64,000 nt of DNA. Source: an uncultured Bacillales bacterium (GTDB lineage: Bacteria > Bacillota_I > Bacilli_A > RFN20 > CAG-826). The stretch's first letter is position 1. The number at the start of each line of letters is the position of its first letter. This document shows positions 38,315-55,513 of the stretch, piece after piece. Both the position numbers and the translations under genes were made by a program. Below the pieces are notes generated by a model. It saw only the letters and a program-made list of their open reading frames with translations. It had not been told where the DNA came from and ran no database searches. The stretch covers positions 872 to 64,871 of the forward strand of contig CAMJAG010000001.1 of the NCBI GenBank assembly GCA_946403545.1, in the 5' to 3' direction.

Positions 38315-38408
38315 ATTGAAATTATTATACGATATCTGTATTTATTTATAAATAAGTAAGAGGACAAATCATGTCCTCACACTACTTATTGACATATATA
38401 TAAAATGA

Positions 38409-38965
38409 AAGAGCATTGGAACCCAGTGAAGTCATCTTGCTGATGGCTGGGGCCCAACCAAAAGAGAAGGATATTCGGGATACTGAATATCTAACAAGAC
38501 CTGTTTATCAGGTATTCCGGGATTAAAATACCGCTTTGGTTGGTGGCGCATAATGCTCTTCGATGTAAGTAGACACCCGAGTAGGCACTACAAGAGGCTC
38601 TGTAGCAATACATCCCACGATAAGATGTTAGTCTGAGAAACTAATATCTACGTTCTCAAAGAAAGTGTTTGGCTTGATGGTAAGCAATTACCTATAACTA
38701 CTTTGGTGGGCACTAGTAGGAGAATGCCAGCGAGTTTTGGATCTACGACAAGATAAAAAATATAGCTGAAGCTCTCTGAAAGTTGGAAGATGATGTAACT
38801 CTTCCCATGGTACGGTAGCAATACCCATTCCAGAAGTATTAGGGTCGCTCCCTCTTACTCAGCCTGGCGTGCATGTGTACGAAAAACAAATTAGAGTAAG
38901 TTATGTATGGCGAAGGTCATCAATGTACAAAAAAGGTGGATTCTTATGACTCCACCATTTTTATT
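38409..38965 (+). ncRNA. candidate large structured ncRNA (class unassigned; ROOL/GOLLD/OLE-scale)
   Basis: 684-nt gap with no ORF of 60 aa or more. Hand-counted G+C is 38-48% per 60-nt line, against about 22% in the adjacent gene. There are many nested helices, including 38409-38417/38552-38560 and 38454-38462/38535-38543. Several G-U pairs work only on the plus strand. It ends in a strong plus-strand terminator. The 5' end and the strand are inferred. Confidence 0.5.
38931..38965 (+). repeat. 35-nt direct repeat, copy 1 (terminator hairpin GGTGGA...TCCACC plus a T-run)
   Basis: AAAAGGTGGATTCTTATGACTCCACCATTTTTATT. Matches copy 2 at 33 of 35 positions. Confidence 0.85.
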
Positions 38966-38998
38966 TGTAGTATGAATGACACATGATAAAATGAATTC
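38965..38998 (+). promoter_or_regulatory. candidate promoter for a leaderless tandem-TIR mRNA
   Basis: TTGTAG (38965-38970), then 16 nt, then TGaTAAAAT with its -10 at 38987-38992, then 6 nt, then the ATG at 38999. No SD is present. Confidence 0.35.
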
Positions 38999-39829
38999 AT
39001 GAATAATGAAACAAATAAAAATGAATTAGAGAATGAGAAAGTTTATATTTTCATTTCGCATTCTCATAAAGATATAGAAAAAGTAAGAAAAATTAGAAAT
39101 TATTTAGAGAGTCTTGATTGTGAACCAATTCTTTTCTTTTTAAAAAGCAAAGATGATGAAGATGAGATAATTCAACTTATCAAAGACGAGATTGATGCTA
39201 GAGTTTGGTTTATTTATTGTAGATCTATAAATGCATCTAAATCTAAATGGGTTAATGATGAAGTAACATATGTTGAGCAAACAGGTAAAAACAACATAGT
39301 TATAGATATCGATGGATGCCTAGATGAAAATGGAGAATTAAAAAATAGCGTTAAAAATAAACTTAATGTCATTATTAACGGATTTAGAAACTTACAACAA
39401 TTGTATATTTCTTATTCACACAAAGACTCTGTTGAAGTTCTTCGTATTGTCCAGTTTTTAAAAAGATATGGTGTTGATTTGTTTTATGATGACATGACAC
39501 ATTTTGGATCAGATTGGAAACATTCTATTCATAATCAAATTGTTAAATCGCCATATTTTCTGGTTTTTTTAAGCAAACAATCCATTAATTCACATTTCAT
39601 TTATGATGAAATAAAGCTAGCACAATACTTTAATAAAGAAATAATTCCCGTAATTCTTTATAACAATATTAACGATTATTATTCAGTCATTGAATCAGAT
39701 GTTTTCCAAAAGAATTTTGCATACTTTTTAGTCTGTGAATTCGATACTTCTAGTGATGTTCAATTCAAAGTGTCCTCATTTAGACTGCTAAACACATTAT
39801 TAGAGCATTTCTTTACGGATTTTGAATAA
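38999..39829 (+). CDS. tandem double-TIR domain protein
   Basis: Two TIR-like units: VYIFISHSHKD...SKWVNDEV and LYISYSHKDS...SHFIYDEI. Each keeps the conserved Glu position. Confidence 0.7.
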   Translation: MNNETNKNELENEKVYIFISHSHKDIEKVRKIRNYLESLDCEPILFFLKSKDDEDEIIQLIKDEIDARVWFIYCRSINASKSKWVNDEVTYVEQTGKNNIVIDIDGCLDENGELKNSVKNKLNVIINGFRNLQQLYISYSHKDSVEVLRIVQFLKRYGVDLFYDDMTHFGSDWKHSIHNQIVKSPYFLVFLSKQSINSHFIYDEIKLAQYFNKEIIPVILYNNINDYYSVIESDVFQKNFAYFLVCEFDTSSDVQFKVSSFRLLNTLLEHFFTDFE

Positions 39830-39832
39830 AAG

Positions 39833-39867
39833 AAAAGGTGGATTCTCATGAGTCCACCATTTTTATT
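39833..39867. repeat. 35-nt direct repeat, copy 2 (bidirectional terminator between convergent genes)
   Basis: AAAAGGTGGATTCTCATGAGTCCACCATTTTTATT. 9-bp stem with an A-run before it and a T-run after it. Confidence 0.85.
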
Positions 39868-41083
39868 ATGTTCGAGTAACTGAGAGGCTAACACTCCAAA
39901 CATAATAGAACATACTTGATGCATTCGCCGTAGGATGGTTTAGATTTAGCATAGCTTCTTCTATAAATAATGCATCTGATTTAGGTACTTTAATTGAGAA
40001 ACTATCCAAATCCGCACCATTGTTACTTTCTAAATGTATCGGGGTTTTATATTGGTTATTGAGTATAAACGACCCATTGATCCAATTACATAACAGCAAT
40101 AATTTTCTACCATAGTTATAGATATTAATCGTATATGTAATGTATTCAGTTGAAGATTCTGCGATCCATTCTTTTAAGTTAAATGGAAGTTTGTACTTCA
40201 ATGATGCATTTGAGGAATAAGTGCTATTTATGGTTGCACTGTTATCTTCAAATGTACTTGTTACACGTAGGCCTGCATAACTCTTATTAAGATTTATATA
40301 TTTATATTCTTCTAATAATGCTTCAGTTCCTAAATAAAGTTTCATTGAAATAGGACTTATTTTTGCAGGTGCAGTTGAGATACAACCTTTTGGTCTAGAA
40401 ACAGTGAATTTAATTCCTTTTAATATCTCTTCTTTATCTAATTTGTACATTCTATTGAAGACTGTGTAGTCATCATTTGAACGGAAGGTTCCACTATCAA
40501 TTAAAGATATTGCAGTATCTAACCTATAATCAACCCAATTAAATGTGTTAATTCCTACTACACCTTCTTCTTTTTCATAGTGGCTGAATTTTATAGTCAA
40601 ATAACCAACTGATTCAGTGTGTTGGAGATAGTATTGATAGTCTTCACTAAGCTTTAATTCATATGATTTTGACTTATTAGAACAAGAGATGTCTACACTA
40701 GGAAAATTGAAGTCTATAATCTGAGCTTCATTAGTGTCCAAATAGTTTGCGTAAATGTTTTCTGGAAGTTCCACATTGTCATAAATTGCTTTGCCAGAGC
40801 GATCCACTAATTTCTTTGAATTTAAGTTTGGCTTTTCGAAACAACCCATAAAGAGTTTGTCCTTCTTCTCTGTAGGTTGATATTCGAAAGTATTTATGTA
40901 TTGTATGGTATTTACTTCACCATCGTTTGCAATAACATTAACTTCCTTCCATGGAATTGGTTGTGGCTTATAATCCTCATCTAAAATCGGACAATTTGTT
41001 TCCCCTTTCATAGAAAAGGAACATGCACTGATAGATAATAACGAGACTGCTGTTATGAGTATTAAGCTAATTTTTCTTTTCAT
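39866..41083 (-). CDS. lipoprotein, function unknown
   Basis: The ORF-track start at 41101 is a TTG inside the SD. The ATG at 41083 (MKRKISLIL...SISAC lipobox) lies 9 nt after GGAGG. Confidence 0.55.
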   Translation of the reverse strand: MKRKISLILITAVSLLSISACSFSMKGETNCPILDEDYKPQPIPWKEVNVIANDGEVNTIQYINTFEYQPTEKKDKLFMGCFEKPNLNSKKLVDRSGKAIYDNVELPENIYANYLDTNEAQIIDFNFPSVDISCSNKSKSYELKLSEDYQYYLQHTESVGYLTIKFSHYEKEEGVVGINTFNWVDYRLDTAISLIDSGTFRSNDDYTVFNRMYKLDKEEILKGIKFTVSRPKGCISTAPAKISPISMKLYLGTEALLEEYKYINLNKSYAGLRVTSTFEDNSATINSTYSSNASLKYKLPFNLKEWIAESSTEYITYTINIYNYGRKLLLLCNWINGSFILNNQYKTPIHLESNNGADLDSFSIKVPKSDALFIEEAMLNLNHPTANASSMFYYVWSVSLSVTRT

Positions 41084-41124
41084 AATTGAGATCCTCCTCA
41101 ATTACAAAATATCACGAAAATAGG

Positions 41125-41370
41125 TTAAATACAATATCTATAGAATAAAAAGAAAGACACCCCGTCAAGGATGTCTATTGCGGATACCTCGAAGATATCA
41201 GCGAAAGTATTGACTGTATCAAGATTCACTGTTCCTTCGTTTTCAATTCTGCGTAAGTTTCTTACTGAATATCCAACGCGGTCTGCTAGCTCTTCTTGAG
41301 TCCAGTTTCTACTTTTTCTTAGGTTCTTGATGGATGTACCAATCAAGCGTGAATCAATTAATGTTCTCAT
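41125..41370 (-). CDS. XRE-family helix-turn-helix transcriptional regulator
   Basis: NLRKSRNWTQEELADRVGYSVRNLRRIENEG. I prefer the ATG at 41370, which lies 8 nt after GGGAGG. The ORF-track start is 41433. Confidence 0.75.
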   Translation of the reverse strand: MRTLIDSRLIGTSIKNLRKSRNWTQEELADRVGYSVRNLRRIENEGTVNLDTVNTFADIFEVSAIDILDGVSFFLFYRYCI

Positions 41371-41455
41371 AACTACTACCTCCCAAATTGATCTGCTACC
41401 TATATTGACAGGTTTTCCTGAGTTTTGATTCACTAAGTAGTTTATGAGCGTATAT

Positions 41456-41486: not shown

Positions 41487-41738
41487 CTAATTGTCAGAAA
41501 TTGATTCTGCAAGTTCTAATATTTGTACAAATGTTAAAGATTGAAGGTGTAGATACGCTTGAACAACAGCCAACTTATATTCAGTTCTATCTGTTGACCT
41601 AATAGCAATATCTCTAAACCTTCTAAATTCTACTCTTGTTTCTTGCTCTGTATCACTAAGGCATGTCATTACCATTTTATTAGTTGCTTCTAAAGTAAGT
41701 TGCCTCAAATATTTTTTCTTAGCCTCAACATCAACCAT
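41487..41738 (-). CDS. hypothetical small protein downstream of the TIR-methyltransferase gene
   Basis: 83 aa, predicted helical. Starts 8 nt after the upstream stop. Confidence 0.45.
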   Translation of the reverse strand: MVDVEAKKKYLRQLTLEATNKMVMTCLSDTEQETRVEFRRFRDIAIRSTDRTEYKLAVVQAYLHLQSLTFVQILELAESISDN

Positions 41739-41746
41739 ATAAATAC

Positions 41747-43099
41747 CTATTTCTTAAATCCTACACAAACAAAGCGGTTAACTGCGTACCAAAAATCATT
41801 TCTAGAGAAACGATATTGGAGTTGCGTTAACAAATCTTCCATTTCATTGAACTCTGCTTTAGTTTGCTCATTTTCGTTTGCGATTAATTGAGCTTTAAAA
41901 TAATTCAATCTATAAGCAAAGCTTACTTTATAAAGACCTAATTTCTCTTCATAAGACATATGAGATGTTTCTGTAACAGTGCAATGCATTTTAACTTTGT
42001 TAAATCCTTCATGGACTAACCAAGAATAAAGTTTTCTACCATTGTTTCTATCAGACATTCCTTCAAGAGAATAAGATTTCTTTAAGACTTTTTCTATAAG
42101 CTCATCATCTCCATAAGAAATCTTACTGCCATCATCACTACCTCTAACAATAATCATTCCGCCTTTATTCATAAGAGCCTTTAAATTCTCTAATGCTTTT
42201 TCAGGATTTGTTAGATGATGGAGGACTAAGAAACAAGAAACAACATCAAAGCCTTTAATGCCCTTTTGCTTCATTATTCCCTGCATTTCCTCCATAAATG
42301 TTGGACTTTCAATATTTAATTGATAGAAAGAGAACTTACTATTTTTATTATTTTTATTTGCTTGTTCAATAGCACTTTCACTAATATCGATTCCCACTAC
42401 TTTAGTGTATTTTGCTTTTCTAAAAGCTTGTCTAGTTACATATCCTTGAGCGCAACCAACATCTAGAACTGTGTAATTGTTTTTGTCTAAATACATGTCT
42501 AAAATGCGTTGGTTTTCATCATCATATCTAGATCCTTGGCTTTTTAATCTTTCTGATTCATTAGTGAAATCAAATTCATAAATAGACCATCTTCCTTTGT
42601 AATCAATGCAATCTTTTGGTCTTGGTCTAGAAACTAAAAACCTATTAAACAATCTCTTTTGATAATCATTTACATCAAAAACATCACCAATTGGTTCACT
42701 ATGACAATCTCTAATTGCGTCAATTTCCTTTGGTAACTTTTTTGGATAATTAACTTTATCTAAGAATAAAACTAGAATATTTAATCCTTCAGTTTTTAAA
42801 GCGGTTTCTATTTCTTGTCTAACCCAGTCATCTTTTTTAAATATTCTCTTAGAAAATGTATCTGGAGTTACAAGAAGAATAAAGTCTTTGGAATTATGGA
42901 TTGCATTAGTTAACTGAGGTGGAAACATACCACCTTGAATTGATACCTTATCAAAGAAACTTAGATAACCATTATCCATCAAATTTCTATATAAAAGATA
43001 CGTTGGATATAATCCATCACTTCTTCTATATGAAATGAAAACATCATATATAAAATCTTTTCTCTTAATTTGAGTGTTTTTATTAATTTCTTCAGGCAT
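41747..43099 (-). CDS. TIR domain fused to a class I SAM-dependent methyltransferase
   Basis: N-terminal TIR (DVFISYRRSDG...DDWVRQEIE). Central methyltransferase motif I VLDVGCAQG, then FDVVSCFLVLHHL and MIIVRGSDDG. SD AGAGGA. Confidence 0.7.
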   Translation of the reverse strand: MPEEINKNTQIKRKDFIYDVFISYRRSDGLYPTYLLYRNLMDNGYLSFFDKVSIQGGMFPPQLTNAIHNSKDFILLVTPDTFSKRIFKKDDWVRQEIETALKTEGLNILVLFLDKVNYPKKLPKEIDAIRDCHSEPIGDVFDVNDYQKRLFNRFLVSRPRPKDCIDYKGRWSIYEFDFTNESERLKSQGSRYDDENQRILDMYLDKNNYTVLDVGCAQGYVTRQAFRKAKYTKVVGIDISESAIEQANKNNKNSKFSFYQLNIESPTFMEEMQGIMKQKGIKGFDVVSCFLVLHHLTNPEKALENLKALMNKGGMIIVRGSDDGSKISYGDDELIEKVLKKSYSLEGMSDRNNGRKLYSWLVHEGFNKVKMHCTVTETSHMSYEEKLGLYKVSFAYRLNYFKAQLIANENEQTKAEFNEMEDLLTQLQYRFSRNDFWYAVNRFVCVGFKK

Positions 43100-43198: not shown

Positions 43199-45580
43199 AT
43201 GTATCCTGAATTACTTGCTATTTTCATTATTACTGGAGTTGTTGAACTCGTTTTAATAGGTGTATTTTTTTATAACCTAATCAGATATAGATATCTTGGT
43301 AATAAATATTTTTACGTAACTGTAAGTGTATTAGTTCTTTTGATGTATTCAACATTCGTCAATAGATCATCAGATCTTTCTATTTCTATGTTTGGAAACA
43401 TAGTGTTTGACACTATTGCGGCAGCAGTAGGTAAAGTTGATACTGAAAAGATTTCTTGGCTGTTTTTACCGGGCGAATGGAATAAATGGCTAGTAATTTT
43501 CTACTTTATCGCCTCATATACAACATTCGCATTCTTATCCATCACAGTTATTCTTAACTTTGCAAAACTCTTCTTAAATGCATTTATTTTCTATAAAAGA
43601 CGAATTATAAATGGAGCAAATGTGTACTATTTGTTCACAGATTCTAGAAATGAAACAGTAATTCCTTTAGCCACTAAACTATTAGATGAAACAAAAGGTC
43701 GTAAAAACTCAGTTAAAGTTTTCGTTTCTAGAGCATCTTTAAAAACTCAAGAAGGTAATGAATTTAGAGATATGTTAGTGGGCTTAGGCATTCCTGTTCA
43801 AGCTGAAAAATTCTCATACAGGATGGCTAGAAAGATCTTTAATTCTAGATACTTCAAACTACATCTTTTTGATAAGCAACAATCGTTTATTTACTTACTT
43901 TTCTCAAATGACGAAACCACTACAAAAGTGGCAACTGATTTCAAAACAGCGATTCAAAAGAATCGTAAGTTTAAAAAAATTAACGACTTTGTAACTCTTT
44001 TAAAGGAAACAAAAGACAAAGATAAATTAGAGAAATTAAAAGAGAACTTTAATGAGAAAGAATATGATTTATTACAAAAAATCCAAATCTTTGTCACTTA
44101 TCAAGAAACAGATTTAGATATTCTCCATAACTTCTCTGGAGAGACATTGCATATCATGAATACTCTTTCTAAGTACGACATGATTGCTTCTAGATTTGTA
44201 TTTGATAATCCAATCTCTCAATTAGTGGACTTAAACAACATCAAACTTAAAGAAGACAATAAACATTTAAATGTTACACTCCTTGGTTTTGGTGTTATTG
44301 ATAGAGCAATATTTGAAAGAATGACATTCTCTTATCAACTTTATGGAGATAATATTAACAAAGTTAATTACCATGTTTTAGATAGAGATGCTGATTCTTT
44401 AATTAAACCTTATGTAAACGAATATACAGATAGAAATAACAGTGTTTATCTATACTCTATCGACTCCGCTTTCGATGGAGAAGATTTAAGACACTACGAA
44501 ACAATTGATAGATATATCTCATCATTGCAAAACGATCCAAACCGTTTCCAAGATGATGGTTTTGAAATCTTTGTTATTTCAGTCATAAACTCAAATAACG
44601 ATTTAAATATCGCGCTTAACTTAAGAAGAGCTATCTTAAAATACTTCAATGATAGATGTGAACAAGTTGTTATTTACGTCAGAGTTGCAGAAAGACTCAT
44701 TGGAGAACAATTCAGAGGTTCAAATCTTTCATACACATACGAAACTCTCTCTCATATTCACGAAGTAAAAGACTTCAATAAGAAATCTGATGTAGAGAAA
44801 GAAGCATACTTCAACTCATTCAAGGACGAGGAAGAAAGAAAAGCAGCAGAGAAAAGATTAATTAAAGATTTAAAAGCACCTATCATTCTCTTTGGTAATG
44901 ATGCAATTATGTCCACATATCTTGCTAGAGAACATAAATACTTCATGGGATTCGCTGAAAACGCTTGGAAATCCTACCAATTAGAACAAGCTTATAACAA
45001 TTATTCTGAAACTCAACTTGATAGATTATGGTTAAGACAAAATAAACAAGAAGTTAAAAATAACACTGATTATGTTCTTTCACTTAGAACAAAGCTAAAC
45101 TTATTTGGCTACAAACTAAATCTAAATAAACAAGAAAACCAATACTTAATGGTTCCTGGTGATGATGTTTCAATTCTTACTTCAGGTGAAAATGAAGAAA
45201 CATTCCTTGAAAGAACAAAACTTAAAGATGAAACTGGTGATGTTGCAAAAGTTCTTAAGATTGCTGATATGGAACATAACCGCTGGTTACAATCCAATAA
45301 CCAAAGATTTAGATATTTATCTAAAGATTACACAAAGGTCGAGGATCAAGAACTATTTGGAGTGAATAAATACACCAATGAAAAAGAAATCACAAGGAAA
45401 TATAACGACAATACACAACACATTTGTATGGTCACTAATGAGGGATTAAGAGACTTCTACAATTATGTTGGAAAGAAAAATCCTGAATATAAAGATGTCG
45501 CTTTAAAACTTGTGTACACAAACGATATTGTTCAGTTAAGAACGATAATCAAAAATGGAACAGAACAAAAGAATAAATAA
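43199..45580 (+). CDS. large membrane protein with Rossmann-like (GxGxxD) segment and weak C-terminal RyR-like signature
   Basis: Four or five N-terminal TM segments. VTLLGFGVIDRAI. C-terminal IADMEHNRWLQSN. SD GAGG. Confidence 0.5.
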   Translation: MYPELLAIFIITGVVELVLIGVFFYNLIRYRYLGNKYFYVTVSVLVLLMYSTFVNRSSDLSISMFGNIVFDTIAAAVGKVDTEKISWLFLPGEWNKWLVIFYFIASYTTFAFLSITVILNFAKLFLNAFIFYKRRIINGANVYYLFTDSRNETVIPLATKLLDETKGRKNSVKVFVSRASLKTQEGNEFRDMLVGLGIPVQAEKFSYRMARKIFNSRYFKLHLFDKQQSFIYLLFSNDETTTKVATDFKTAIQKNRKFKKINDFVTLLKETKDKDKLEKLKENFNEKEYDLLQKIQIFVTYQETDLDILHNFSGETLHIMNTLSKYDMIASRFVFDNPISQLVDLNNIKLKEDNKHLNVTLLGFGVIDRAIFERMTFSYQLYGDNINKVNYHVLDRDADSLIKPYVNEYTDRNNSVYLYSIDSAFDGEDLRHYETIDRYISSLQNDPNRFQDDGFEIFVISVINSNNDLNIALNLRRAILKYFNDRCEQVVIYVRVAERLIGEQFRGSNLSYTYETLSHIHEVKDFNKKSDVEKEAYFNSFKDEEERKAAEKRLIKDLKAPIILFGNDAIMSTYLAREHKYFMGFAENAWKSYQLEQAYNNYSETQLDRLWLRQNKQEVKNNTDYVLSLRTKLNLFGYKLNLNKQENQYLMVPGDDVSILTSGENEETFLERTKLKDETGDVAKVLKIADMEHNRWLQSNNQRFRYLSKDYTKVEDQELFGVNKYTNEKEITRKYNDNTQHICMVTNEGLRDFYNYVGKKNPEYKDVALKLVYTNDIVQLRTIIKNGTEQKNK

Positions 45581-45694: not shown

Positions 45695-46618
45695 ATGATT
45701 ACAGAAATTCATAAGAATTATTCTGCTTTTCGAGAAATGTTGTTAGCCACAACTGCTTTAAGCAACCGTTCTAGTAAGAAATATGATGACGATTGCAAAG
45801 CAATCATTGATTTCATCGGAGAAGCATATGGTCTAGAAAAAGACCTCGTAGAATATTGTAAAAAGGTCATTTTAGATGAACTAGTTACAATATCTACTGA
45901 CCAAGATATCCGCGCTTTCGTAAATTCACATACCGCTGACAGTGAATTAGAAGAATTAGACTCTTTATTAAGCGCTAAATGTGATGTTATTGGAGTTATT
46001 AGAAACTTTGGAGAAGTTAGAAGTCCTCAATTAAGTGAGACTTGGTTTGACTATAGTCATAGCAATCCATATTATCCAGAAATTAGATATCAACAATTAT
46101 CTATCGCTGCTTCCACAGGTAATGTAGTAGCAAATAAGATCGTTGGTATTCTTTCTGTTTTAGGTATTGGATGCGAAGCTACTAGAGAAAAGGTTCTTTC
46201 TGGAGTTTATAGACTTAGACAATGCGCTATTTGGGGAGACATTTCTTCTCTAATTATGATTAGACAAGTTTATAGAATCTTAGAAATGAAAGAACAAGTA
46301 AAACTCTATGATGAATTAGTGTCATTAGTACCTTTCATGAAAGAAGGAAGAACAGTAATTCCTCAAAGAATTGCAGAGAAAATCTCTAGAGAAGCAATAG
46401 AAACATTCGCAATTATCTGTTCTATTAAACAAGACATTATCTTAAATCAACATAAGTTCTACATAGATTATTCATTCGTTGAAGTTATGTTACTTAAAGA
46501 AGTTGATTACTATGATAAACTCCACTTCATTAATAAATATGACGCTCAAGAGTGGAAAGAAGTTACTAACTCATCATTTAATCCAAATAAGAAGATTGGA
46601 TTTAAGATTGGAGAATAG
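45695..46618 (+). CDS. helical repeat protein (Sel1/TPR-like?)
   Basis: 307 aa. The segment AASTGNVVANKIVGILSVLGIGCEATREKVLSGVYRLRQCAIWGD resembles Sel1-like repeats. SD GGAG. Confidence 0.35.
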   Translation: MITEIHKNYSAFREMLLATTALSNRSSKKYDDDCKAIIDFIGEAYGLEKDLVEYCKKVILDELVTISTDQDIRAFVNSHTADSELEELDSLLSAKCDVIGVIRNFGEVRSPQLSETWFDYSHSNPYYPEIRYQQLSIAASTGNVVANKIVGILSVLGIGCEATREKVLSGVYRLRQCAIWGDISSLIMIRQVYRILEMKEQVKLYDELVSLVPFMKEGRTVIPQRIAEKISREAIETFAIICSIKQDIILNQHKFYIDYSFVEVMLLKEVDYYDKLHFINKYDAQEWKEVTNSSFNPNKKIGFKIGE

Positions 46619-48587: not shown

Positions 48588-49133
48588 ATGGCTAACGATA
48601 ATTTTGAAGAATTATATAAACAAGGAATTATAGTCATCACTACTGGTATAGAAGATATGGATGTTACTAGTAACATCATCTTATCTCTTCTTAATTGGAA
48701 CAGAATTGATCCAAAGAAAGAATTACAACTCTATATCTCTTCAGTATCTGGAGACTACCTAAATGTCCTTTCTATTTATGACGCTATCCAATCAATTAGT
48801 AATCCAATTTCAGGATATTGTATTGGTTTAGTTGGTAGTTGCGCTGCACTACTTTTAGCGGCGTGTAACAAAGGTAAACGCTACATTTTAGAGCATAGTC
48901 AAATTGCTTTAAGAGAGATTTCTGGCATTATTCCTGGTGGAAGTAAACAACAAACAGAAATCGAAATTCTCGCAAACGAATTAGCGTCTCAAAGAGAAAC
49001 ATTTGAATCTCTTCTTTCAAAACATACAGGTCAATCCGTTGAAGAAATACACCACCTTTGCTATGAAAACACTTATTTAACTCCTGAAGAAGCTATTAAA
49101 AAAGGCTTCGTAGATAAGATTGTGAGGAAATAA
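48588..49133 (+). CDS. ClpP-like (S14) subunit, predicted catalytically inactive
   Basis: Aligns by eye with ClpP. Ser is kept (GLVGSCAA), but His is replaced (IALREI versus IHQP) and Asp is replaced (YENTYL versus ERDRFL). Confidence 0.6.
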   Translation: MANDNFEELYKQGIIVITTGIEDMDVTSNIILSLLNWNRIDPKKELQLYISSVSGDYLNVLSIYDAIQSISNPISGYCIGLVGSCAALLLAACNKGKRYILEHSQIALREISGIIPGGSKQQTEIEILANELASQRETFESLLSKHTGQSVEEIHHLCYENTYLTPEEAIKKGFVDKIVRK

Positions 49134-49135: not shown

Positions 49136-49648
49136 ATGGATAACAGAATTATTACTTTAAATGGTGAAATCAACGAAGGAAGCGCGATGAAAGTTATTCT
49201 TTCATTACTTCAAATGGATGCTGAAAATAGAAAACAACCAATATATCTATATATCAACTCTCCTGGTGGAAATATTGTTCATGGATTAGCAATATATGAT
49301 GTTATGAATAACATATCCGCTCCGGTATATACAGTATGTAATGGCATGGCAGCATCGATGGGTAGTTTCTTACTCTCTTGTGGTGCTAAAGGACATAGAT
49401 ATTGTTTAAAACACTCTCGTATTCTTATCCATCAACCACTTGTCTATAACAACTATGGAAGAATGATTGAAGAAAGCGAAGCTCAACAAATCGCCGCTAA
49501 TTTAAGAAAAGATAGAGATAAATTAGAACAAATCATGGCAGACAATTCTGGTAAAGACATTAAAGTCTTCCATAAGGATTGTGAAAGAGACCATTGGATG
49601 AGCGCTCAAGAAGCTCTAGACTATGGTCTAATAGATAAGATTATCTAA
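49136..49648 (+). CDS. ClpP-like (S14) serine protease subunit, catalytic triad intact, N-terminal axial region missing
   Basis: YINSPGG, GMAASMG (Ser), ILIHQP (His) and CERDHWMSAQEA (Asp). It starts at the position equivalent to RVIFLTG of canonical ClpP. Confidence 0.7.
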   Translation: MDNRIITLNGEINEGSAMKVILSLLQMDAENRKQPIYLYINSPGGNIVHGLAIYDVMNNISAPVYTVCNGMAASMGSFLLSCGAKGHRYCLKHSRILIHQPLVYNNYGRMIEESEAQQIAANLRKDRDKLEQIMADNSGKDIKVFHKDCERDHWMSAQEALDYGLIDKII

Positions 49649-49650: not shown

Positions 49651-49680
49651 AAAGAGGAAGTCCTAGACTTCCTTTTATTT
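49651..49680. terminator. bidirectional terminator shared by the convergent operons
   Basis: GGAAGTC (49656-49662) pairs with GACTTCC (49666-49672), flanked by an A-run and a T-run. Confidence 0.65.
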
Positions 49681-50433
49681 CACTCTATTAAGTATTAACT
49701 CAAGTGTTTCTTGGTTATTTGCAACCACTAATGAATCGCTACCAAATTCGTATTCTTTTTTATTGATGGTTTTATAAACCATTCCAGCTTCTTTTATCAA
49801 TAAAAGACCTGGTGCTATATCCCATATGTAATTGTAGTAGCAGATATATGCTTGTGCTTTTGATGTGGCTAATGTAGTAAAGTCTACACAAGCCGCTCCT
49901 AAAAGTCTCGTTTTAAGGAAATTCCCTTGTAAATCCTTCATTAATTCAAATTGTTTATCAAATGAAATGGTTTTGTTATCTTTATAAAAATCACTAGATA
50001 ATAAAACTCCATCTTCATGTTTAATATCTTTATTTACTTTAATAGGTTTTCCATTAAGGAAAGCTCCACCATCTTTCTTAGCAAGATATAACTCATCCTT
50101 ATATGGCAAATAGATTATTGATAACACTACTTCTTTCCTTTGGAAAACCGCTAGTTGAATACCACAAAGTTCTATGCCCATTGAATAGTTACAAGTGCCA
50201 TCAAGTGGATCGATAACAAAGGTTAGTTCATCTGTTAGTGGTTCGTTTTTACTTTCTTCTGCGATTATTTTTGCTTGAGGGAATTCTTTTTTAATAGCGT
50301 TAACAAAATAATCATTAAGTTCTAAATCCGCTTCTGAGAGTAAGTCATTAATAGATTTATGTTTAATTGATTTATGTTGCTTAAAGAATATGTCTTTTGA
50401 AGATAAAACTAGTTGTTTTAAATACTCTTCCAT
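49675..50433 (-). CDS. inositol monophosphatase / CysQ-family phosphatase
   Basis: Motifs IDPLDGTCNY and WDIAPG. Starts 4 nt after the TIR-STAND stop. Confidence 0.75.
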   Translation of the reverse strand: MEEYLKQLVLSSKDIFFKQHKSIKHKSINDLLSEADLELNDYFVNAIKKEFPQAKIIAEESKNEPLTDELTFVIDPLDGTCNYSMGIELCGIQLAVFQRKEVVLSIIYLPYKDELYLAKKDGGAFLNGKPIKVNKDIKHEDGVLLSSDFYKDNKTISFDKQFELMKDLQGNFLKTRLLGAACVDFTTLATSKAQAYICYYNYIWDIAPGLLLIKEAGMVYKTINKKEYEFGSDSLVVANNQETLELILNRVK

Positions 50434-50437
50434 GCGA

Positions 50438-53284
50438 TTATCCCTTCAAATCTCTAATAAATTTCTCAACATGTTTAATCCATGTTAATACTGATTCATT
50501 TTGTAAGTATTCGTATTTTCTTGTTACTTTTTGTGCTTCGCAAATCAAATTATATAAAGCTTGTGCTTCAGTTAATTCGATTGGAATATTTAGTTTTTCC
50601 GCAATTTCAATTGCTTCAGAACAAGGAGCTTCCGCTTTTGCAAGTAAGGAAGTATCTCCATTATAGTTTACTAAATAGTAAAGAGAAGTTAAGAAATAGA
50701 TTTGACCTTGGTCATATAAATCTTTATTCTCTTTAGCACATTTCATTGCTTCTTCTTTTAATTCCATGATCCTTGCTTCATTGCCACGATTAACAATTTC
50801 ATAGAACATAGATGTATATAAGAATCTTGTGTAATATCTATCATGTTGGTTATATAAGACATAGATTGCTTCCGCTTTATTAAGTTTATCTTTAGCTTTA
50901 GCTAAATCCATATGCCATATACATGCATCAGCGTATACACGATAGTCTTCCGCTAAGAAGAGGTGATCTCCAATTTGAGTGCCATCTTCCATTTCTTCTT
51001 TAACTCTTTTATCAAGAAGCGCGACAGCATTATCTGCTGCTTTATAGCAGTTTTCTAAATCAAGCCTTCTACAATAAACTTTTGATAAAGTTAAGTTAAT
51101 CAAAGATTCTTCGTATAAATCGCCTGCTTCTTTAGCGTCTTTGATCGCACCATCACTCATTCCTATGAGTTCGTCGAATAGCACCATCTTGCGATAAACA
51201 AGCATTGCCATTCTTTCAAATTCACTACGAATTTCTATGTCTAATTCGCCTAAATCATGTTCTTTGATGAATTCTTTAATGTCATTAAATGCTTCAGTAA
51301 ATGATAAGGAAATATAGTGGAATTGAATAACTCCCATATCATAGTTCACATCATCACTTGGATCTCTATTCTTTAAGAACTTACCAAATCCTGCTTCTTT
51401 AAGTTTGATAAATAAGCCAGCGTTATAGATTGCTTGTCTATATTTGATAAAGATTTTTGTAAAACATTCAGACTGATAGATTTCAAACGCTTCATAATCA
51501 TCATCCTTATAGATGTAATTGATGTTATCAATGTATTCAAATAATCCTTCATAAAGAGTGTAAAGTTTTGATTTAATACACACTCTTAAAAAGTCAAAAT
51601 TCTTTAATAGTTTACAAAGTTTTTCTGTCTTTTTAAGTGCTTTTAAGGCTTTTTGATAGTCTAAGATGACATAAGGATTGTTCTTCCATTCACCTAATTC
51701 AATTTGCTTTTCAATATATTCAAGCAAGATCTTATAACCATCTCTTCTAGAGACACAATATTTTGCAGGACATTCGTTAGATTCACTTAACCAGTCTAAA
51801 ATTGATTTATGTCTACTCTTAAGAGTGCCATCTTCAATAATTACAAAGTAATTAGATACTATATCGATATTCTTTCTAATTTCAGATTCTGATAGACCTG
51901 TTGCATCCGCTAAAAACTCCACTGTTGGAGGAACGCTTGTAGCGAGTAATAAAGATATAATCTTTCTAATATCTTCATAATCATCTGGTGCTTTAGGGAA
52001 AATTCTATCAAACCAGATTAAGTAGTATGAATAAATTCCGTCAGGGAATTCTCTAACGTTATCTAAAGAGTATTCACCACTCTTAATTAGACTAACAATA
52101 CTCTTAGCATATAAGAATGATCCATGTGTTTTTCCAAGCAAAATCCTCAGTGTTTCTGCATCGAATTTATAATTTGAGAGTGCTTGGTCATAATACTTTT
52201 TAATATCCGCAACGTTTTCTTCATTGTTTTCTAACATGCTGAAAACGTGACAACTTGAGAAGTAACTAACAACATTCTTTTGAGGTCTAGTTGAACATAA
52301 AATCTTTAACCAAGAAGGTAAAGTGTTTTGATAAGTCACTATCATCTCAGCAATTTCATTTTTATTATCCAAAACTGCTTCATCTAATGCATCGATAACA
52401 ATTATTTGAGGGTTCTTAAAAGTAACTTTGTTACCTACTTCAATAAAGAACAACTCAAATAATCTTTTAGCGTCTAAATTATCTATATTTGCTTCTCTAG
52501 TTAAAATCTTTTTAATTTCGAGATTATAATCTTCGTTACGACCAGCGATTTGTGCTGCTAAGTTTTTAATAATACTTCTAGCGTCAGTCTTAGTTCTATT
52601 ACCAAAGCTACAGAAATGGATACCTGCAACATTGTTATGGAAATTAATAGTTAACATAGCGCACATTGCAGTCTTTCCAATACCTGGAGCAGCTTGTAAT
52701 AAATAGATTGGTAAACTATCTGGTTTATTAATCCATTTTTCTACATCCGCGAAGAAAGAATCTCTACCAACAAAGTTGAGTGTATGATGAGTAATTTCAA
52801 AAGCGTCAATAGCTTGGACTTCTTTAGAAATATCAAAACCAGTATCGAAGTAGCCTACTTCTTCTTCGTTTCTAACGATCTTTAGTAATCTTTGATAGCA
52901 ACTTTCGTATACATCTTCAATGATTGAATTATCCGCTGCGACAGCGTTTTTAATCATGATTCTTTGTAAACGAACAATTGAAAGAGGAACATAAGAGTCA
53001 TCTAACATGATAGGAACAATTGTTTTCTTATATTCCACTGCTCTAGCGAGTTCATTTAAACAATATCCGTCTAGAGAAACAGACTTTTTAGATACAAAGA
53101 AAACAAAATGACTACATCTTTGAATCGCGTTATCAATTTTAGTTTCCCAATCACCTTGATATAGATAGTCCTTATCAAGGAAGACTTCATAAACTTCTTC
53201 TTTGCGTAAATCAGTAACAACTTTATTGACTACGTTTTCTAAAGTTTGATGTCCATAGGATATGAAAATAACTTGTTTATCCAT
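50438..53284 (-). CDS. TIR - STAND P-loop NTPase - TPR-like repeat protein (Avs/bNACHT-like architecture)
   Basis: TIR (VIFISYGHQ...GYCLNELA). Walker A APGIGKTA. Walker B IIVIDALDEA. The C-terminal roughly 400 aa is a helical repeat region. Confidence 0.75.
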   Translation of the reverse strand: MDKQVIFISYGHQTLENVVNKVVTDLRKEEVYEVFLDKDYLYQGDWETKIDNAIQRCSHFVFFVSKKSVSLDGYCLNELARAVEYKKTIVPIMLDDSYVPLSIVRLQRIMIKNAVAADNSIIEDVYESCYQRLLKIVRNEEEVGYFDTGFDISKEVQAIDAFEITHHTLNFVGRDSFFADVEKWINKPDSLPIYLLQAAPGIGKTAMCAMLTINFHNNVAGIHFCSFGNRTKTDARSIIKNLAAQIAGRNEDYNLEIKKILTREANIDNLDAKRLFELFFIEVGNKVTFKNPQIIVIDALDEAVLDNKNEIAEMIVTYQNTLPSWLKILCSTRPQKNVVSYFSSCHVFSMLENNEENVADIKKYYDQALSNYKFDAETLRILLGKTHGSFLYAKSIVSLIKSGEYSLDNVREFPDGIYSYYLIWFDRIFPKAPDDYEDIRKIISLLLATSVPPTVEFLADATGLSESEIRKNIDIVSNYFVIIEDGTLKSRHKSILDWLSESNECPAKYCVSRRDGYKILLEYIEKQIELGEWKNNPYVILDYQKALKALKKTEKLCKLLKNFDFLRVCIKSKLYTLYEGLFEYIDNINYIYKDDDYEAFEIYQSECFTKIFIKYRQAIYNAGLFIKLKEAGFGKFLKNRDPSDDVNYDMGVIQFHYISLSFTEAFNDIKEFIKEHDLGELDIEIRSEFERMAMLVYRKMVLFDELIGMSDGAIKDAKEAGDLYEESLINLTLSKVYCRRLDLENCYKAADNAVALLDKRVKEEMEDGTQIGDHLFLAEDYRVYADACIWHMDLAKAKDKLNKAEAIYVLYNQHDRYYTRFLYTSMFYEIVNRGNEARIMELKEEAMKCAKENKDLYDQGQIYFLTSLYYLVNYNGDTSLLAKAEAPCSEAIEIAEKLNIPIELTEAQALYNLICEAQKVTRKYEYLQNESVLTWIKHVEKFIRDLKG

Positions 53285-53966
53285 GTACTTTTTCCTCTAA
53301 AGCAATGTTATAACCCGCTTTCTTGCCTTCATTTAATGTTTCTTCATTTGCTAAATGCATAAGAGTAATTTTCTTTCTCTCTTCCATATTGAAGGCGTTA
53401 TTTAATACTGAAATATGAGTATGTATCATCGCATTAAGAGAAGTTGTAACTTCATGATACATTTCATCTATTTTTCCTGATTTAAGTTCTCTAACTGCTC
53501 TATCAAGTAGTTCAGATGTATCTCCTGAATAGTAGAAATTAATTTCTTTAGAATATACAAAATATGCATAACTACCAGGAATATGTGGAACTTCAACAGG
53601 TTCCACTTTTAAATCTTTGATTAAAGAGTAGTCATTATATATTTCAAAATCAAAATCTAAACCAGTTAATTGGAGTAGTTTTTTAAGATTATCTTTTAAA
53701 GGATAGAAGACTTTTACCGTCTTTTTTGAGAAGAAATGAATCCAATATAAGAATGGTTCAAGGCTTCCAATATGATCACTATGAAGATGGGTAATTAAAA
53801 CAACAATTTCATCAACATCATCTAAAAGATGAAGTGCTAAAATCTTGTCACAAATTTTCTCGCCCATATCAAAAATATACAATTTGCCATTTTGTTTAAA
53901 ATAAGCACAATTGTTATTTGTGAAATAGTTAAAAGCGGCTCCTACACCTAAAAATTTTAAATACAT
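53277..53966 (-). CDS. metallo-beta-lactamase-fold hydrolase
   Basis: HxHxDH motif as ITHLHSDHIG. Overlaps the TIR-STAND start by 8 nt. Confidence 0.75.
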   Translation of the reverse strand: MYLKFLGVGAAFNYFTNNNCAYFKQNGKLYIFDMGEKICDKILALHLLDDVDEIVVLITHLHSDHIGSLEPFLYWIHFFSKKTVKVFYPLKDNLKKLLQLTGLDFDFEIYNDYSLIKDLKVEPVEVPHIPGSYAYFVYSKEINFYYSGDTSELLDRAVRELKSGKIDEMYHEVTTSLNAMIHTHISVLNNAFNMEERKKITLMHLANEETLNEGKKAGYNIALEEKVHG

Positions 53967-53968
53967 AA

Positions 53969-54226
53969 TTATTTAATTATCTTATAGCCTTCTTTAAGAA
54001 TACATTTAATCGTAGCAAGAGCGGTATTCCTATCATATTCTTTTTCTTCTTCAGGAAGTTCATCATAAGGCACTAAACAAGGAGTTTGTTTTTTAGTGTC
54101 ATTTCTTTCTGGACCATAGGTCCATCCATCTTTGATTCTTCCTTCCATCCAAGTTATATGGACTTGTTCCGCTATTATTTCGATAAGTTGTTTTATATCT
54201 TCAGTGATAACAATATCTTTTTCCAT
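53969..54226 (-). CDS. stand-alone RyR (ryanodine-receptor repeat) domain protein
   Basis: AEQVHITWMEGRIKDGWTYGPERNDTKKQTPCLVPYDELPEEEKEYDR closely follows the bacterial RyR-domain consensus. Confidence 0.7.
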   Translation of the reverse strand: MEKDIVITEDIKQLIEIIAEQVHITWMEGRIKDGWTYGPERNDTKKQTPCLVPYDELPEEEKEYDRNTALATIKCILKEGYKIIK

Positions 54227-54228
54227 AA

Positions 54229-54666
54229 TTATTCGTCTTCTAGTATTTTTTGAAATAAGCTGTATTCATCTCTAGTTATTGTATCATCACTAGCAGTTAG
54301 AGCGATACCATATAAAACAACAGCAGTTTTAGTATCTTCATCAAATTCTTCTTTGATATTATTTACCATTGCTTTAACAAAAGCTTCTTTATCTCCAAAT
54401 TGAGTAGCATGGAAGAATTCTCTATAAGAAACATCTAATCCTGTTGCTTCTTTAAAGAATCCATATTCCTTAACAGCGCAATCTTTATCAGCAGAAACGT
54501 ACATTCTAGTTAAGTTAATAACAATATTAGCGATTCTATCTTTGTGATAATCTTGTTTTCTAAGATTACGATAAAGTCTTTCTAAAGCTTGTCTACCTAA
54601 CTTTGCTCTTTCAGCATCTTCTAAATTAACAACTTCATGCATGACTCGTTCTACTTCTTTATTCAT
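54229..54666 (-). CDS. TerB-like domain protein (paralog 2)
   Basis: Two half-motifs, YVSADKDCAVKEYGFF and LTASDDTITRDEYSLF, resemble TerB. Confidence 0.5.
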   Translation of the reverse strand: MNKEVERVMHEVVNLEDAERAKLGRQALERLYRNLRKQDYHKDRIANIVINLTRMYVSADKDCAVKEYGFFKEATGLDVSYREFFHATQFGDKEAFVKAMVNNIKEEFDEDTKTAVVLYGIALTASDDTITRDEYSLFQKILEDE

Positions 54667-54681
54667 AATATGTTCTTCCTA

Positions 54682-54903
54682 TTATTTTTTACTTTTTAGA
54701 TTACAAGCATTTGGGAAATTAATTTCCCACGCTGCTGCTCTTGCTATTTGAAGTAATTTATATTTCTTATCTTCATCAGTTATCTCTTTGATAACTTCTT
54801 TAGTATTTGGATTTAACAAAAATATTTTGGATTCTTTAACTCCAAATACTGAATCTCTTACTTCGTATAAGTGTCTTCCGTTACGAAATTGAAATGGTTT
54901 CAT
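54682..54903 (-). CDS. hypothetical small protein
   Basis: 73 aa. Its start overlaps the upstream stop (TAATG). Confidence 0.45.
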   Translation of the reverse strand: MKPFQFRNGRHLYEVRDSVFGVKESKIFLLNPNTKEVIKEITDEDKKYKLLQIARAAAWEINFPNACNLKSKK

Positions 54904-55331
54904 TATGCAAGCAATTTGTCGATTAAATCTTGTTCTGCAACTGTTAATGTGTGGTCACTTGCTAAGAAAGTAACTGCAAATAAGACCATACTTGTTCTTG
55001 TTTTGTTATCTGCTTTTTTCATTAAGTTAGCAAATTCATTAACATAATCATCATCTAAGCCACCATTGGTCATGTCATAGAATGTATCTGTATCCATATC
55101 AATACCAGTGACTGCTCTAAAGAAAGAATATTCTGCTCCACTACATTTGCCATCAGCAGAAACTAAAATTCTAACTAAGTGAATAATTAAGTTAGTAATT
55201 TCATCCTTATTACAACCGAGTTCTTTTAAACCTCCGATAAAGTCGTTTAAAGCATGTGCAGCAATATTAACTTTTTCTTGTGGTTCTTCGTTTAAAATGT
55301 TTTGGCACATTTTTCTTAATTCAGCATCCAT
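54903..55331 (-). CDS. TerB-like domain protein (paralog 1)
   Basis: LVSADGKCSGAEYSFF and FLASDHTLTVAEQDLI. I prefer the ATG at 55331 (MDAELRK), which lies 7 nt after GGGAGGA. The ORF-track start is 55349. Confidence 0.5.
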   Translation of the reverse strand: MDAELRKMCQNILNEEPQEKVNIAAHALNDFIGGLKELGCNKDEITNLIIHLVRILVSADGKCSGAEYSFFRAVTGIDMDTDTFYDMTNGGLDDDYVNEFANLMKKADNKTRTSMVLFAVTFLASDHTLTVAEQDLIDKLLA

Positions 55332-55427
55332 ATGAAATCCTCCCATCATTAATGAAAGACTTCAAACATATAGTTTTTGTCCATTCAATTACATATAAAT
55401 ATCTGTCTAAATTTATTTTATCATTTT

Positions 55428-55463
55428 TAAAGAACAAAAAGAACACGTTTTTAACGTGCTCTT
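55428..55463 (-). terminator. intrinsic terminator after cysK
   Basis: On the minus strand AAGAGCACG pairs with CGTGTTCTT (plus-strand arms 55439-55447 and 55455-55463, one G-U pair), followed by TTTGTTCTTT. Confidence 0.55.
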
Positions 55464-55513
55464 GTGGTGGGTTTATAGTCTCTAAATAGCCAGGGGGACT
55501 ACTTATTGCTTAA

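Follow-up and report, generated by a model that had tools for sequence, protein, structure and literature searches.

A rare modular gene set with a core of a small RyR protein and an RCK/KTN-like membrane protein, a candidate TIR-signaling system of an uncultured Bacillales bacterium

Introduction

Is a row of defense-like genes in a bacterial genome a collection of independent systems, or does one system account for most of it? The question is raised by the interval between an S41 peptidase gene and cysK in a 64,000-nucleotide stretch of contig CAMJAG010000001.1 from an uncultured Bacillales bacterium. This whole stretch is called the window below, and coordinates are positions in it. The interval spans ~17 kb and holds 17 genes. 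The original prediction, which was made from the sequence alone, took the whole interval as a defense island with three different TIR architectures. Here, we report that positions 41747 to 55349 (~13.6 kb, 15 genes) likely form one functionally linked, rare modular system, with an invariant core of a membrane protein, which we call BP, and a small protein with a ryanodine receptor (RyR) domain. A role in conflict or immunity is fairly probable, and, judging from the sequence, we lean toward the view that the system is a new kind of TIR-signaling (Thoeris-like) immune system.

Results

BP and a small RyR protein recur together in divergent loci

The two core genes are the following.

43199..45580, plus strand: BP, a 793-aa membrane protein, signature gene and candidate effector
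53969..54226, minus strand: small RyR Repeat12-type protein, 85 aa (RyR, PF02026, E value of 3e-26)

The gene contexts of divergent BP members, which show 27 to 45% identity, were checked by tblastn. The compared loci were the window, L086, L088, L090, L094, L095, L096, and L097, which are about eight independent loci, all metagenomic. A small RyR gene (54 to 68% identical) adjoined BP in all eight loci with readable flanks. A ClpP pair was present in six of seven loci, TerB-like genes in six of seven system loci, and a gene for a 307-aa protein together with a VirD4-like ATPase gene in five of seven. TIR or TIR-like genes occurred in six of eight loci; they were adjacent in the window, L090, L094 (where the TIR gene is upstream of BP), L096 (a DUF4062, TIR-like, STAND gene), and L097, and ~9 kb off in L086, which encodes a TIR-HAD protein and a STAND-like ATPase nearby. 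The window and L090 share a block of a TIR-STAND gene, a metallo-beta-lactamase-fold hydrolase (MBL) gene, and an inositol-monophosphatase family (IMPase) gene. In L097, the only companions of BP were RyR and a 61%-identical TIR-methyltransferase.

Gene order was reshuffled and gene content was retained when the window was compared with L090, L095, and L096. Because this content recurs in loci with 27 to 45% identity despite the shuffled order, we regard the genes as one modular system. Around the invariant core, the optional modules are the TIR-methyltransferase, the active and dead ClpP pair with or without the VirD4-like ATPase and the 307-aa protein, one or two TerB-like genes, and the block of TIR-STAND, MBL, and IMPase genes. 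Statistics on the codivergence of the components were positive, but with n of 4 to 6 they are too few to count as evidence.

These comparisons bear on the alternative of a classic defense island of independent systems, in which each TIR protein is a lone NADase. The independent systems would be a solitary tandem TIR, the TIR-methyltransferase, an Avs-like TIR-STAND protein with helpers, and a VirD4/ClpP system. Chance, however, cannot explain why the rare BP protein is found with the same RyR, ClpP-pair, TerB-like, and 307-aa/VirD4-like companions at such divergence and in shuffled order. This alternative also leaves the three-gene set of BP, RyR, and TIR-methyltransferase in L097 unexplained, and it does not fit the location of RyR and TerB-like genes in the same tight operon as the TIR-STAND gene. 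It does agree with the separate transcription units, which have their own terminators, with the independent gain and loss of modules between loci, with TIR-methyltransferase and tandem-TIR families that are far more widespread than BP, with a tandem-TIR homolog that stands alone elsewhere, and with the general autonomy of STAND-TIR proteins as known from Avs/NLR-like systems. Overall, we consider a set of independent systems unlikely, and one modular system is the reading followed below.

The BP family is very rare. It was represented by 17 clusters among 5.8e9 sequences and by ~32 full-length representatives among 1.84e9, with roughly 130 representatives of the family in all, and a scan of JGI metagenomes for further BP loci returned four short contigs only. 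BP had zero matches in 50,697 phage records, 72,556 plasmid records, or viral contigs.

Some loci showed additional features. In L086 (1-9829 and 17491-21686), two radical-SAM genes that are divergent from BP flank the module, as do genes for a TIR-HAD-PfkB fusion and a 1509-aa STAND-like ATPase, a DpnII restriction-modification system, and a HicB-like gene. The context of L086 is a clear defense island. In L095, a TerB-like gene lies beside genes for a von Willebrand factor A (vWA) protein, a Ser/Thr kinase, and a 669-aa protein (16747-21554); we take the TerB-like, vWA, and Ser/Thr-kinase genes to resemble a TerY-P triad. The same locus has a 'skipping-rope' RNA (RF02924, 37.6 bits) at 6499-6589, ~2.7 kb upstream of BP. 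In L090, a tRNA gene (12126-12198) is located directly past the last system gene and is a possible integration boundary there.

BP resembles RCK/KTN proteins, and the small protein is a RyR Repeat12-type domain

BP consists of an N-terminal transmembrane (TM) domain, tandem RCK/KTN-like Rossmann domains joined to it, and a helical C terminus with an invariant EHNRW motif. It has ~3 to 4 TM helices, and a dinucleotide-binding fingerprint is present. The best structural matches of the BP model were RCK/KTN channels and transporters, at ~9 to 13% sequence identity, and the modeled cytoplasmic part appears to resemble the tandem RCK/KTN gating ring of ligand-gated cation channels. BP showed no Pfam or NCBIfam domain, and 10 distant or fused relatives showed no Pfam domains.

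The small RyR protein scored 91.8 bits against the PF02026 cutoff of 27.4. It also gave ~100 bits to 3NRT and 57 bits to repeat 1 of RyR2 R12. Residues H23, W26, K46, K62, and D65 are invariant. The canonical 'HPCLVPY' is replaced by 'TPC-VPY', with the 'HP' histidine changed to Thr in all eight proteins (8/8). This protein is a bona fide Repeat12-type RyR domain, and it retains the H-x-x-W motif and the Asp, with which phage homologs bind or cleave the 2' and 3' isomers of cyclic ADP-ribose (cADPR) (PMC13232231; 10.64898/2026.06.04.730250).

TIR-encoding units and the seven-gene operon

The gene map was made from the listing of open reading frames (ORFs) and Pfam HMM scans, and further scans were made with PADLOC, NCBIfam, and Rfam. 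The TIR-methyltransferase unit contains three genes.

41125..41433, minus strand: XRE-family helix-turn-helix (HTH) regulator (HTH_3, 5e-11), last gene of the unit
41487..41738, minus strand: 83-aa protein, no family match
41747..43099, minus strand: fusion of TIR and S-adenosylmethionine (SAM) methyltransferase, 450 aa (TIR_2, 1e-9; Methyltransf_31, 2e-22)

The fusion gene is divergent from BP. Its TIR domain is of the SARM1 type, with the catalytic Glu in 'DWVRQEI' by alignment, and the 61%-identical ortholog lies directly after RyR and BP in L097. The protein is a candidate signal generator. In L095, a 191-aa gene next to RyR and BP was a weak tblastn match of the 83-aa protein (E value of 6e-5). 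The XRE gene is collinear in the strain contig L098 and missing from the minimal system of L097. The 3' end of the called XRE ORF contains a terminator-like hairpin (41155-41176), and the true stop or the boundary of the unit may differ from the call.

The second unit is a seven-gene minus-strand operon (55349-49675). In order, it encodes a TerB-like protein, a 73-aa ORF, a second TerB-like protein, RyR, MBL, TIR-STAND, and IMPase; the genes other than RyR are listed here.

54903..55349, minus strand: TerB-like protein 1, 142-148 aa, first gene of the operon
54682..54903, minus strand: 73-aa protein, no family match
54229..54666, minus strand: TerB-like protein 2, 145 aa (TerB, PF05099, E value of 0.0025, 18.5 bits against a cutoff of 24.4)
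53277..53966, minus strand: MBL, Apyc1/RNase Z-like (Anti-Pycsar_Apyc1, 6e-12; Lactamase_B)
50438..53284, minus strand: TIR-STAND (TIR_2, 2e-15; NACHT-like NPHP3_N P-loop, 6e-22; winged helix; helical C terminus)
49675..50433, minus strand: IMPase (Inositol_P, 5e-48), last gene of the operon

The genes are tightly packed, with intergenic gaps of -8 to 15 nt, and a cysK terminator (55463-55439) lies upstream of the TerB-like protein 1 gene. The catalytic Glu of TIR-STAND ('CLNEL') was aligned to TIR-1, and a 64%-identical ortholog is present in L090, where MBL and IMPase accompany it. TPR repeats, which had been predicted for this protein together with TIR and STAND, were not detected by Pfam in the C-terminal 409 aa; the TIR and STAND parts were both found. 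The three predicted TIR proteins were all supported by TIR_2 matches (2e-26 for the tandem TIR described below, 1e-9, and 2e-15), and the catalytic-Glu motif is kept in all three TIR domains, two of which were aligned to SARM1/TIR-1, with the tandem TIR read directly off the sequence.

The other operon products could be assigned with different precision. In the predicted set of TerB, RyR, MBL, and IMPase genes, RyR, the MBL fold, and IMPase were verified, and TerB was weakly supported, below the Pfam threshold. Three of nine members of the TerB-like family matched TerB, all below the cutoff, and the family profile matched PDB 2H5N with an E value of 0.0018. TerB-like protein 2 is a paralog of the 54903-55349 product. 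The 73-aa protein has a weak homolog within a 192-aa gene of L086. MBL contains HLHSDH, the generic MBL HxHxDH motif. Its best matches were Apyc1 and RNase Z, all below the cutoffs; the Apyc1 model scored 46 bits against a cutoff of 50 and covered profile positions 5 to 90 of 250 only, which falls short of an assignment to Apyc1. IMPase was below every NCBIfam equivalog cutoff.

The ClpP pair is linked to a VirD4-like ATPase and a 307-aa protein

Four plus-strand genes follow BP.

45695..46618, plus strand: 307-aa protein with an invariant C-terminal [I/L]GFK motif (46595-46618)
46622..48586, plus strand: soluble VirD4/TraG-like ATPase of the FtsK-HerA superfamily (T4SS-DNA_transf, 2e-37, 130 bits)
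48588..49133, plus strand: ClpR-like dead ClpP paralog, 181 aa (CLP_protease, 1e-39)
49136..49648, plus strand: active ClpP-like serine protease, 170 aa (CLP_protease, 2e-58)

The 170-aa ClpP retained the Ser-His-Asp triad in six of six orthologs. The 181-aa copy has other residues in place of His and Asp, and its Ser position varies among six orthologs. Each of the six ortholog pairs combines one copy that retains the triad with one that has lost it. Both ClpPs are without N-terminal axial loops, and the 170-aa copy lacks the N-terminal ~23 residues. They were below all NCBIfam cutoffs for housekeeping equivalogs (180 versus 308.6).

The VirD4-like ATPase also matched TraG-D_C and TrwB_AAD_bind, and its Walker A and B motifs are intact, which places it among the P-loop NTPases of the type IV coupling protein family. 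It scored 240 bits against the NCBIfam CD1115 family, whose cutoff is 250. Identity to conjugative coupling proteins was only 27 to 29%, over residues 92-516. No TM segment or membrane anchor was found in the protein, and no conjugation genes were found in the window or related loci.

Five orthologs of the 307-aa protein (39 to 84% identity) were compared, and G302, F303, and K304 are invariant. The protein is always found with the VirD4-like ATPase and a ClpP pair. ClpX docks on ClpP via its IGF loop. The [I/L]GFK tail presumably recalls this docking loop and its mimicry by acyldepsipeptides (ADEP). By this analogy, the IGF-like tail could couple a non-AAA+ ATPase to ClpP in a new way.

The interval appears variable and shows no evident mobility mechanism

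The interval is bounded by the first two of the following features.

36632-38314, minus strand: S41 peptidase, left flank
55514-56443: cysK, right flank
31715-31790: tRNA-Ala, the sole tRNA of the window, 6.5 kb from the interval

The predicted gene content between these flanks, including the XRE regulator (HTH_3) and the VirD4-like and ClpP-like genes (T4SS-DNA_transf and CLP_protease), was borne out by the ORFs and Pfam. Domain scans revealed no integrase or transposase domains in the interval or its flanks. No att-like repeats bounding the 17 kb were found in a direct-repeat search, which gave just low-identity chance pairs. Thus, without a mobility gene, flanking tRNA, or att-like repeat, the earlier statement that a mobility mechanism is not evident was correct.

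Nothing in the composition pointed to recent acquisition. The tetranucleotide distance of the interval was 9.95, within the 8.7 to 14.1 of control segments of the same size, and its GC content was 0.314 versus 0.333. The proposal of a compositional island was rejected. PADLOC found no complete known defense system in the interval, only domain-level matches; its MADS-like matches (mad1, mad2, and mad8) were generic HTH, methyltransferase, and P-loop matches.

Relatives were examined at three distances. An identical cysK was found only on rumen and gut metagenome and metagenome-assembled genome (MAG) contigs, and the closest species representatives were uncultured rumen 'Bacilli/Erysipelotrichaceae/Acholeplasmatales' MAGs with 77 to 86% identical cysK. 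None of 13 related species carried island genes within 10 kb of cysK; in these relatives, the gene content of the interval is not conserved at this site. In these 13 cysK-anchored relatives, just the Rrf2-cysK pair was conserved, and the other flank genes of the window were not syntenic either; because the relatives are too distant and their flanks are not syntenic, they cannot define an empty site. At the strain level, contigs L001 to L005 from several samples were collinear with 97.6 to 98.5% nucleotide identity and always contained the genes, and L098, with 93 to 100% identical proteins, was also collinear with the window. No strain-level empty site was found, as every sampled strain contig carries the genes in the same order.

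The intermediate case is L097, from a genus-level relative, which shares the left flank and is the part of the synteny comparison that was informative. Seven left-flank genes are syntenic (57 to 93% identity), ending in MazG-like, a 182-aa gene, and MgtC. The MgtC/182-aa/MazG block, 63 to 93% identical to the window, is followed directly by BP, RyR, and TIR-methyltransferase, which are 3 of the 17 interval genes. The system proteins were 39 to 68% identical between L097 and the window, versus 63 to 93% for flank proteins.

Two side observations concern the flanks. A second variable segment lies between a phospholipase D (PLD)/cardiolipin-synthase-like gene and MazG-like (window 27903-33113 versus L097 7994-8114); it holds Band7/flotillin, two small ORFs, a 337-aa ORF, tRNA-Ala, and a GGDEF gene, and it is missing in L097, where PLD adjoins MazG-like. 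On the right flank, the Rrf2-family regulator gene and cysK are divergent, with a 20-nt inverted repeat (90% complementary) between them (56438-56538). Of the right flank, relatives share this pair alone (10 of 13 examined), and its conservation together with the inverted repeat suggests a CymR-like operator.

Selection was compared between the window and L098. Every gene was under purifying selection. The highest dN/dS values were those of BP (0.32), TerB-like protein 1 (0.19), and RyR (0.18), and ClpP, ClpR, and MBL had zero amino acid changes. BP (43199-45580 in the window, 2031-4412 in L098) had 38 amino acid differences between the strains.

Several of these results would also be expected of a nonimmune module, an RCK-regulated transporter or ion-homeostasis device with its own ClpP and TerB-like stress proteins, in which TIR and RyR sense NAD-derived metabolites. 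The module lies in the same MgtC-block neighborhood in two relatives, every sampled strain has it, all genes are under purifying selection, and neither a compositional anomaly nor mobility genes were found; moreover, RCK/KTN domains normally regulate K+ transport, and the neighbors of BP in L088 look housekeeping-like. Such a device, however, would not be expected to be so patchy and very rare or missing at the cysK locus of 13 related species, and the system proteins of L097 diverge much faster than their flanks. The repeated association with TIR, STAND, restriction-modification, and HicB-like genes also argues against it, and we consider this explanation quite unlikely. The interval appears variable and is defense-like, as originally predicted, and the prediction of a defense island is revised in that ~13.6 kb of it probably belongs to one modular system and not to independent systems.

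A ROOL RNA, a tandem-TIR gene, and a lipoprotein gene are neighbors of the system

The left part of the interval contains the following features.

38398..38938, plus strand: ROOL RNA, a large ornate noncoding RNA (Rfam RF03087)
38931..38965: terminator hairpin, copy 1, 35 nt, bidirectional, at the 3' end of ROOL (direct repeat D3)
38999..39829, plus strand: tandem-TIR protein, 276 aa, with two TIR_2/ThsB_TIR stretches (2e-26)
39833..39867: terminator hairpin, copy 2, 35 nt (terminator-like site at 39837-39858)
39866..41101, minus strand: predicted lipoprotein, 411 aa, whose sequence shows a signal peptide and a lipobox (LLSISAC)

The candidate large noncoding RNA of the original prediction turned out to be ROOL, with 187.6 bits against the gathering score of 99.1 and full-length coverage (model positions 1 to 574 of 574). 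ROOL is a nanocage-forming RNA of phages and prophages without known function (PMC12286853). The usual descriptions place it in phages and prophages, close to tRNAs, and this copy differs in its setting: it is chromosomal and not in a prophage, lies between the S41 peptidase gene and a TIR gene, and has no tRNA island. ROOL was not found in eight related loci and had no blastn match in phages, and its candidacy as a part of the system or as a TIR-linked element was rejected on these grounds. A link to the TIR gene was also rejected because there is no room for ROOL upstream of a 48%-identical tandem-TIR homolog.

The tandem-TIR protein matched ThsB models in PADLOC, and its catalytic-Glu motifs are SKWVNDE and HFIYDE. 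Its family comprises 87 clusters. The 48%-identical homolog is solitary and located after a polysaccharide operon near serine recombinases, with ROOL and the RyR system absent nearby. In the window, the two hairpin copies are 94% identical and exactly flank a 902-bp tandem-TIR unit, and the sequence beyond the 35 nt does not align. Since the gene is flanked by two such terminator copies, the arrangement suggests that it entered next to ROOL as a one-gene cassette and that the ROOL terminator was duplicated in the process.

The 411-aa lipoprotein had no Pfam, PADLOC, or NCBIfam match and was missing from all related system loci. It is probably unrelated to the system, and its gene is probably its own transcription unit. 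ROOL, the tandem-TIR cassette, and the lipoprotein gene (38398-41101) appear to be independent neighbors of the system.

ROOL, the MBL, and the VirD4-like protein could together be read as signs of a mobile-element remnant or cargo, or of a counterdefense set, with the VirD4-like ATPase from a decayed conjugative element, RyR and MBL as anti-Thoeris and anti-Pycsar proteins, and ROOL as a prophage mark. This explanation takes some support from the phages and prophages in which ROOL is usually described (PMC12286853), from RyR-domain homologs in 189 phage records, the phage ones being anti-Thoeris (PMC13232231; 10.64898/2026.06.04.730250), from anti-Pycsar Apyc1 as the best Pfam match of MBL, and from the conjugative function of the nearest named family of the VirD4-like protein. 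Against it, the window contains no relaxase, type IV secretion system, integrase, capsid, or terminase genes, and its composition is native. BP is unmatched in the phage and plasmid records and viral contigs, RyR and MBL are cooperonic with host TIR genes, and the VirD4-like protein, without a membrane anchor and distant from coupling proteins, is always tied to ClpP. We regard this explanation as very improbable.

Discussion

A model of the modular system

Phage RyR/R12-like proteins bind 3'cADPR, 2'cADPR, and cADPR at nanomolar affinity or cleave the ribose-ribose bond, and they thereby block Thoeris; their ligand residues are H-x-x-W, Lys/His, and an acidic residue (PMC13232231; 10.64898/2026.06.04.730250). 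Because phage RyR domains bind or cleave these TIR-made cADPR isomers, we read 41747-55349 as Thoeris-like, in line with the earlier suggestion, still plausible, that its TIR proteins share the logic of nucleotide signals.

The model draws on the domain identities, the conserved colocation, the retained catalytic and ligand residues, and the purifying selection that were observed here, and we infer its steps from them. Upon infection, a competent TIR, either the methyltransferase fusion or the STAND sensor, would turn NAD+ into a signal derived from ADP-ribose, and the methyltransferase of the fusion might modify the signal or serve as a sensor. The small RyR protein would bind the signal, as phage RyR domains do, and act as a threshold-setting buffer or glycosidase or as an adaptor that relays the signal to BP. 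Through its Rossmann/RCK domains, BP would then alter membrane permeability, leading to growth arrest or abortive infection. ClpP/ClpR may form a second, proteolytic arm with a VirD4-like ring docked through the IGF tail of the 307-aa protein, and MBL and IMPase would turn the signal over. We propose the specific signaling chain from TIR to RyR and BP only tentatively, with somewhat less than an even chance.

The fullest version of this model is a host prototype in which a TIR messenger, maybe methylated by the fused methyltransferase, would be received by a free-standing RyR protein that gates the RCK-type channel BP, and in which a parallel ATP-dependent protease of a new kind would be formed by a ClpP/ClpR barrel that is fed by a hexamer of the FtsK/VirD4 type via an IGF-tailed adaptor. 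We hold this version, taken as a whole, to be speculative and improbable. If true, it would define a new Thoeris-like type, and it would hint that the coupling of cADPR to the ryanodine receptor in animals goes back to prokaryotic immunity.

Several observations weigh against one TIR-signaling system of this kind. The structural scores were moderate, and the BP sequence shows no selectivity filter or TVGYG-like motif and no Pfam Ion_trans_2 or TrkH match. A RyR-like domain inside the BP C terminus was also considered and found no support (hhalign E values of 0.13 to 0.46); the full model gave no RyR match, nor did a low-confidence model of the C terminus (pLDDT of 62). No TIR gene could be seen in L095, nor in L088, where the contig stops directly behind the module and the neighbors are housekeeping-like, and the whole sample is about eight metagenomic loci. 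No system was recognized by PADLOC, NCBIfam, or Pfam. BP, the genes from the 307-aa protein to ClpP, and the minus-strand operon are each transcribed on their own, and terminators lie between them. TIR-STAND proteins of the Avs/NLR-like type are usually autonomous. Finally, the TIR-methyltransferase family, with at least 190 clusters, is far more common than BP, and because it so outnumbers BP, its members mostly work without it.

Significance

Binding or cleavage of cADPR isomers by RyR Repeat12 domains was shown only in 2026, for phage counterdefense proteins, and both preprints treat phage proteins only (PMC13232231; 10.64898/2026.06.04.730250). The locus described here, which links a RyR domain genetically to TIR enzymes and an RCK-type membrane protein, bears on the role of the many host bacterial RyR proteins and likewise on the action of cADPR on animal R12. 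Its minimal form consists of three genes, for a TIR-methyltransferase, RyR, and a channel-like membrane protein, and is a compact, testable host system. The components not previously reported in TIR signaling are the TIR-methyltransferase fusion, which might make a modified signal; the active and dead ClpP pair with a VirD4-type ATPase, perhaps a non-AAA+ route into ClpP; and MBL and IMPase as built-in candidates for signal clearing. For genome scanning, the locus is a caution that a row of 'different' defense genes can be one modular system.

Comparison with known systems

Within Thoeris, type X combines TIR with the ion-channel ThsK and type II combines TIR with a Macro-TM pore former. The system here likewise has a competent TIR beside a nucleotide-binding membrane protein, and its three-gene form in L097 shares the layout of signal maker and effector. 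At the sequence level, the TIR domains would fit Thoeris, with TIR_2 matches and a catalytic Glu aligned to SARM1 and TIR-1. The TIR domains differ in being fused to a SAM methyltransferase or a STAND NTPase and not of the ThsB type, and BP differs in lacking a match to Pfam, NCBIfam, or a known Thoeris effector model, where ThsK was compared by description only. An obligatory host RyR, ClpP/ClpR, and the VirD4-like, TerB-like, MBL, and IMPase proteins have no counterpart in the described types. A survey of TIR signaling lists 29 putative Thoeris types, among them type X, which is validated and has an 'ion channel' effector and a signal that is not known (10.64898/2025.12.03.692087). Its text does not mention RyR, ClpP, methyltransferase, TrkA, or RCK, and the accessible part of its tables contains no RyR, PF02026, TrkA, or Clp (10.64898/2025.12.03.692087).

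The phage anti-Thoeris RyR proteins, the RyDEP glycosidase and the RyR Tad sponge, have the same PF02026 Repeat12 fold and the H-x-x-W and acidic residues. In contrast to them, the small RyR protein is host encoded, is cooperonic with TIR genes and tied to a membrane protein, and has an invariant Thr in place of the phosphate-binding His. Its role would be regulatory or receptor-like and not counterdefense.

With RCK/KTN channels (KtrA/TrkA, MthK, GsuK, CASTOR, and Slo/BK), BP shares the tandem pair of Rossmann RCK-like domains after a TM domain. It differs from them in having no Pfam TrkA_N or ion-transport match and no TVGYG-type filter, and in its extra C-terminal helical EHNRW domain. The ClpP1P2 and ClpP-ClpR proteases that work with ClpX/ClpA also have active and inactive paralogs in tandem and an IGF-like motif in a partner. 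The proteins here, however, lack axial loops, the linked ATPase is a VirD4-like member of the FtsK/HerA superfamily and not an AAA+ unfoldase, and the IGF-like motif is at the C terminus of a separate 307-aa protein, whose docking is conjectural.

TIR-STAND has the same TIR, NACHT-like P-loop, winged helix, and long helical C terminus as Avs/NLR-like STAND proteins with TIR. Unlike these, it had no Avs/bNACHT match in PADLOC, is operonic with MBL, IMPase, RyR, and TerB-like genes, and moves with MBL and IMPase. The Ter network, whose proteins are proposed to sense nucleoside-like signals (PMC7824862), is represented here by TerB-like small proteins with subthreshold TerB matches, and TerC, TerD, and TelA are absent. 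Altogether, this RyR-centered modular system is recognized by no tested library and described in no searched paper, and it is provisionally best classed as TIR-based (Thoeris-like) signaling immunity.

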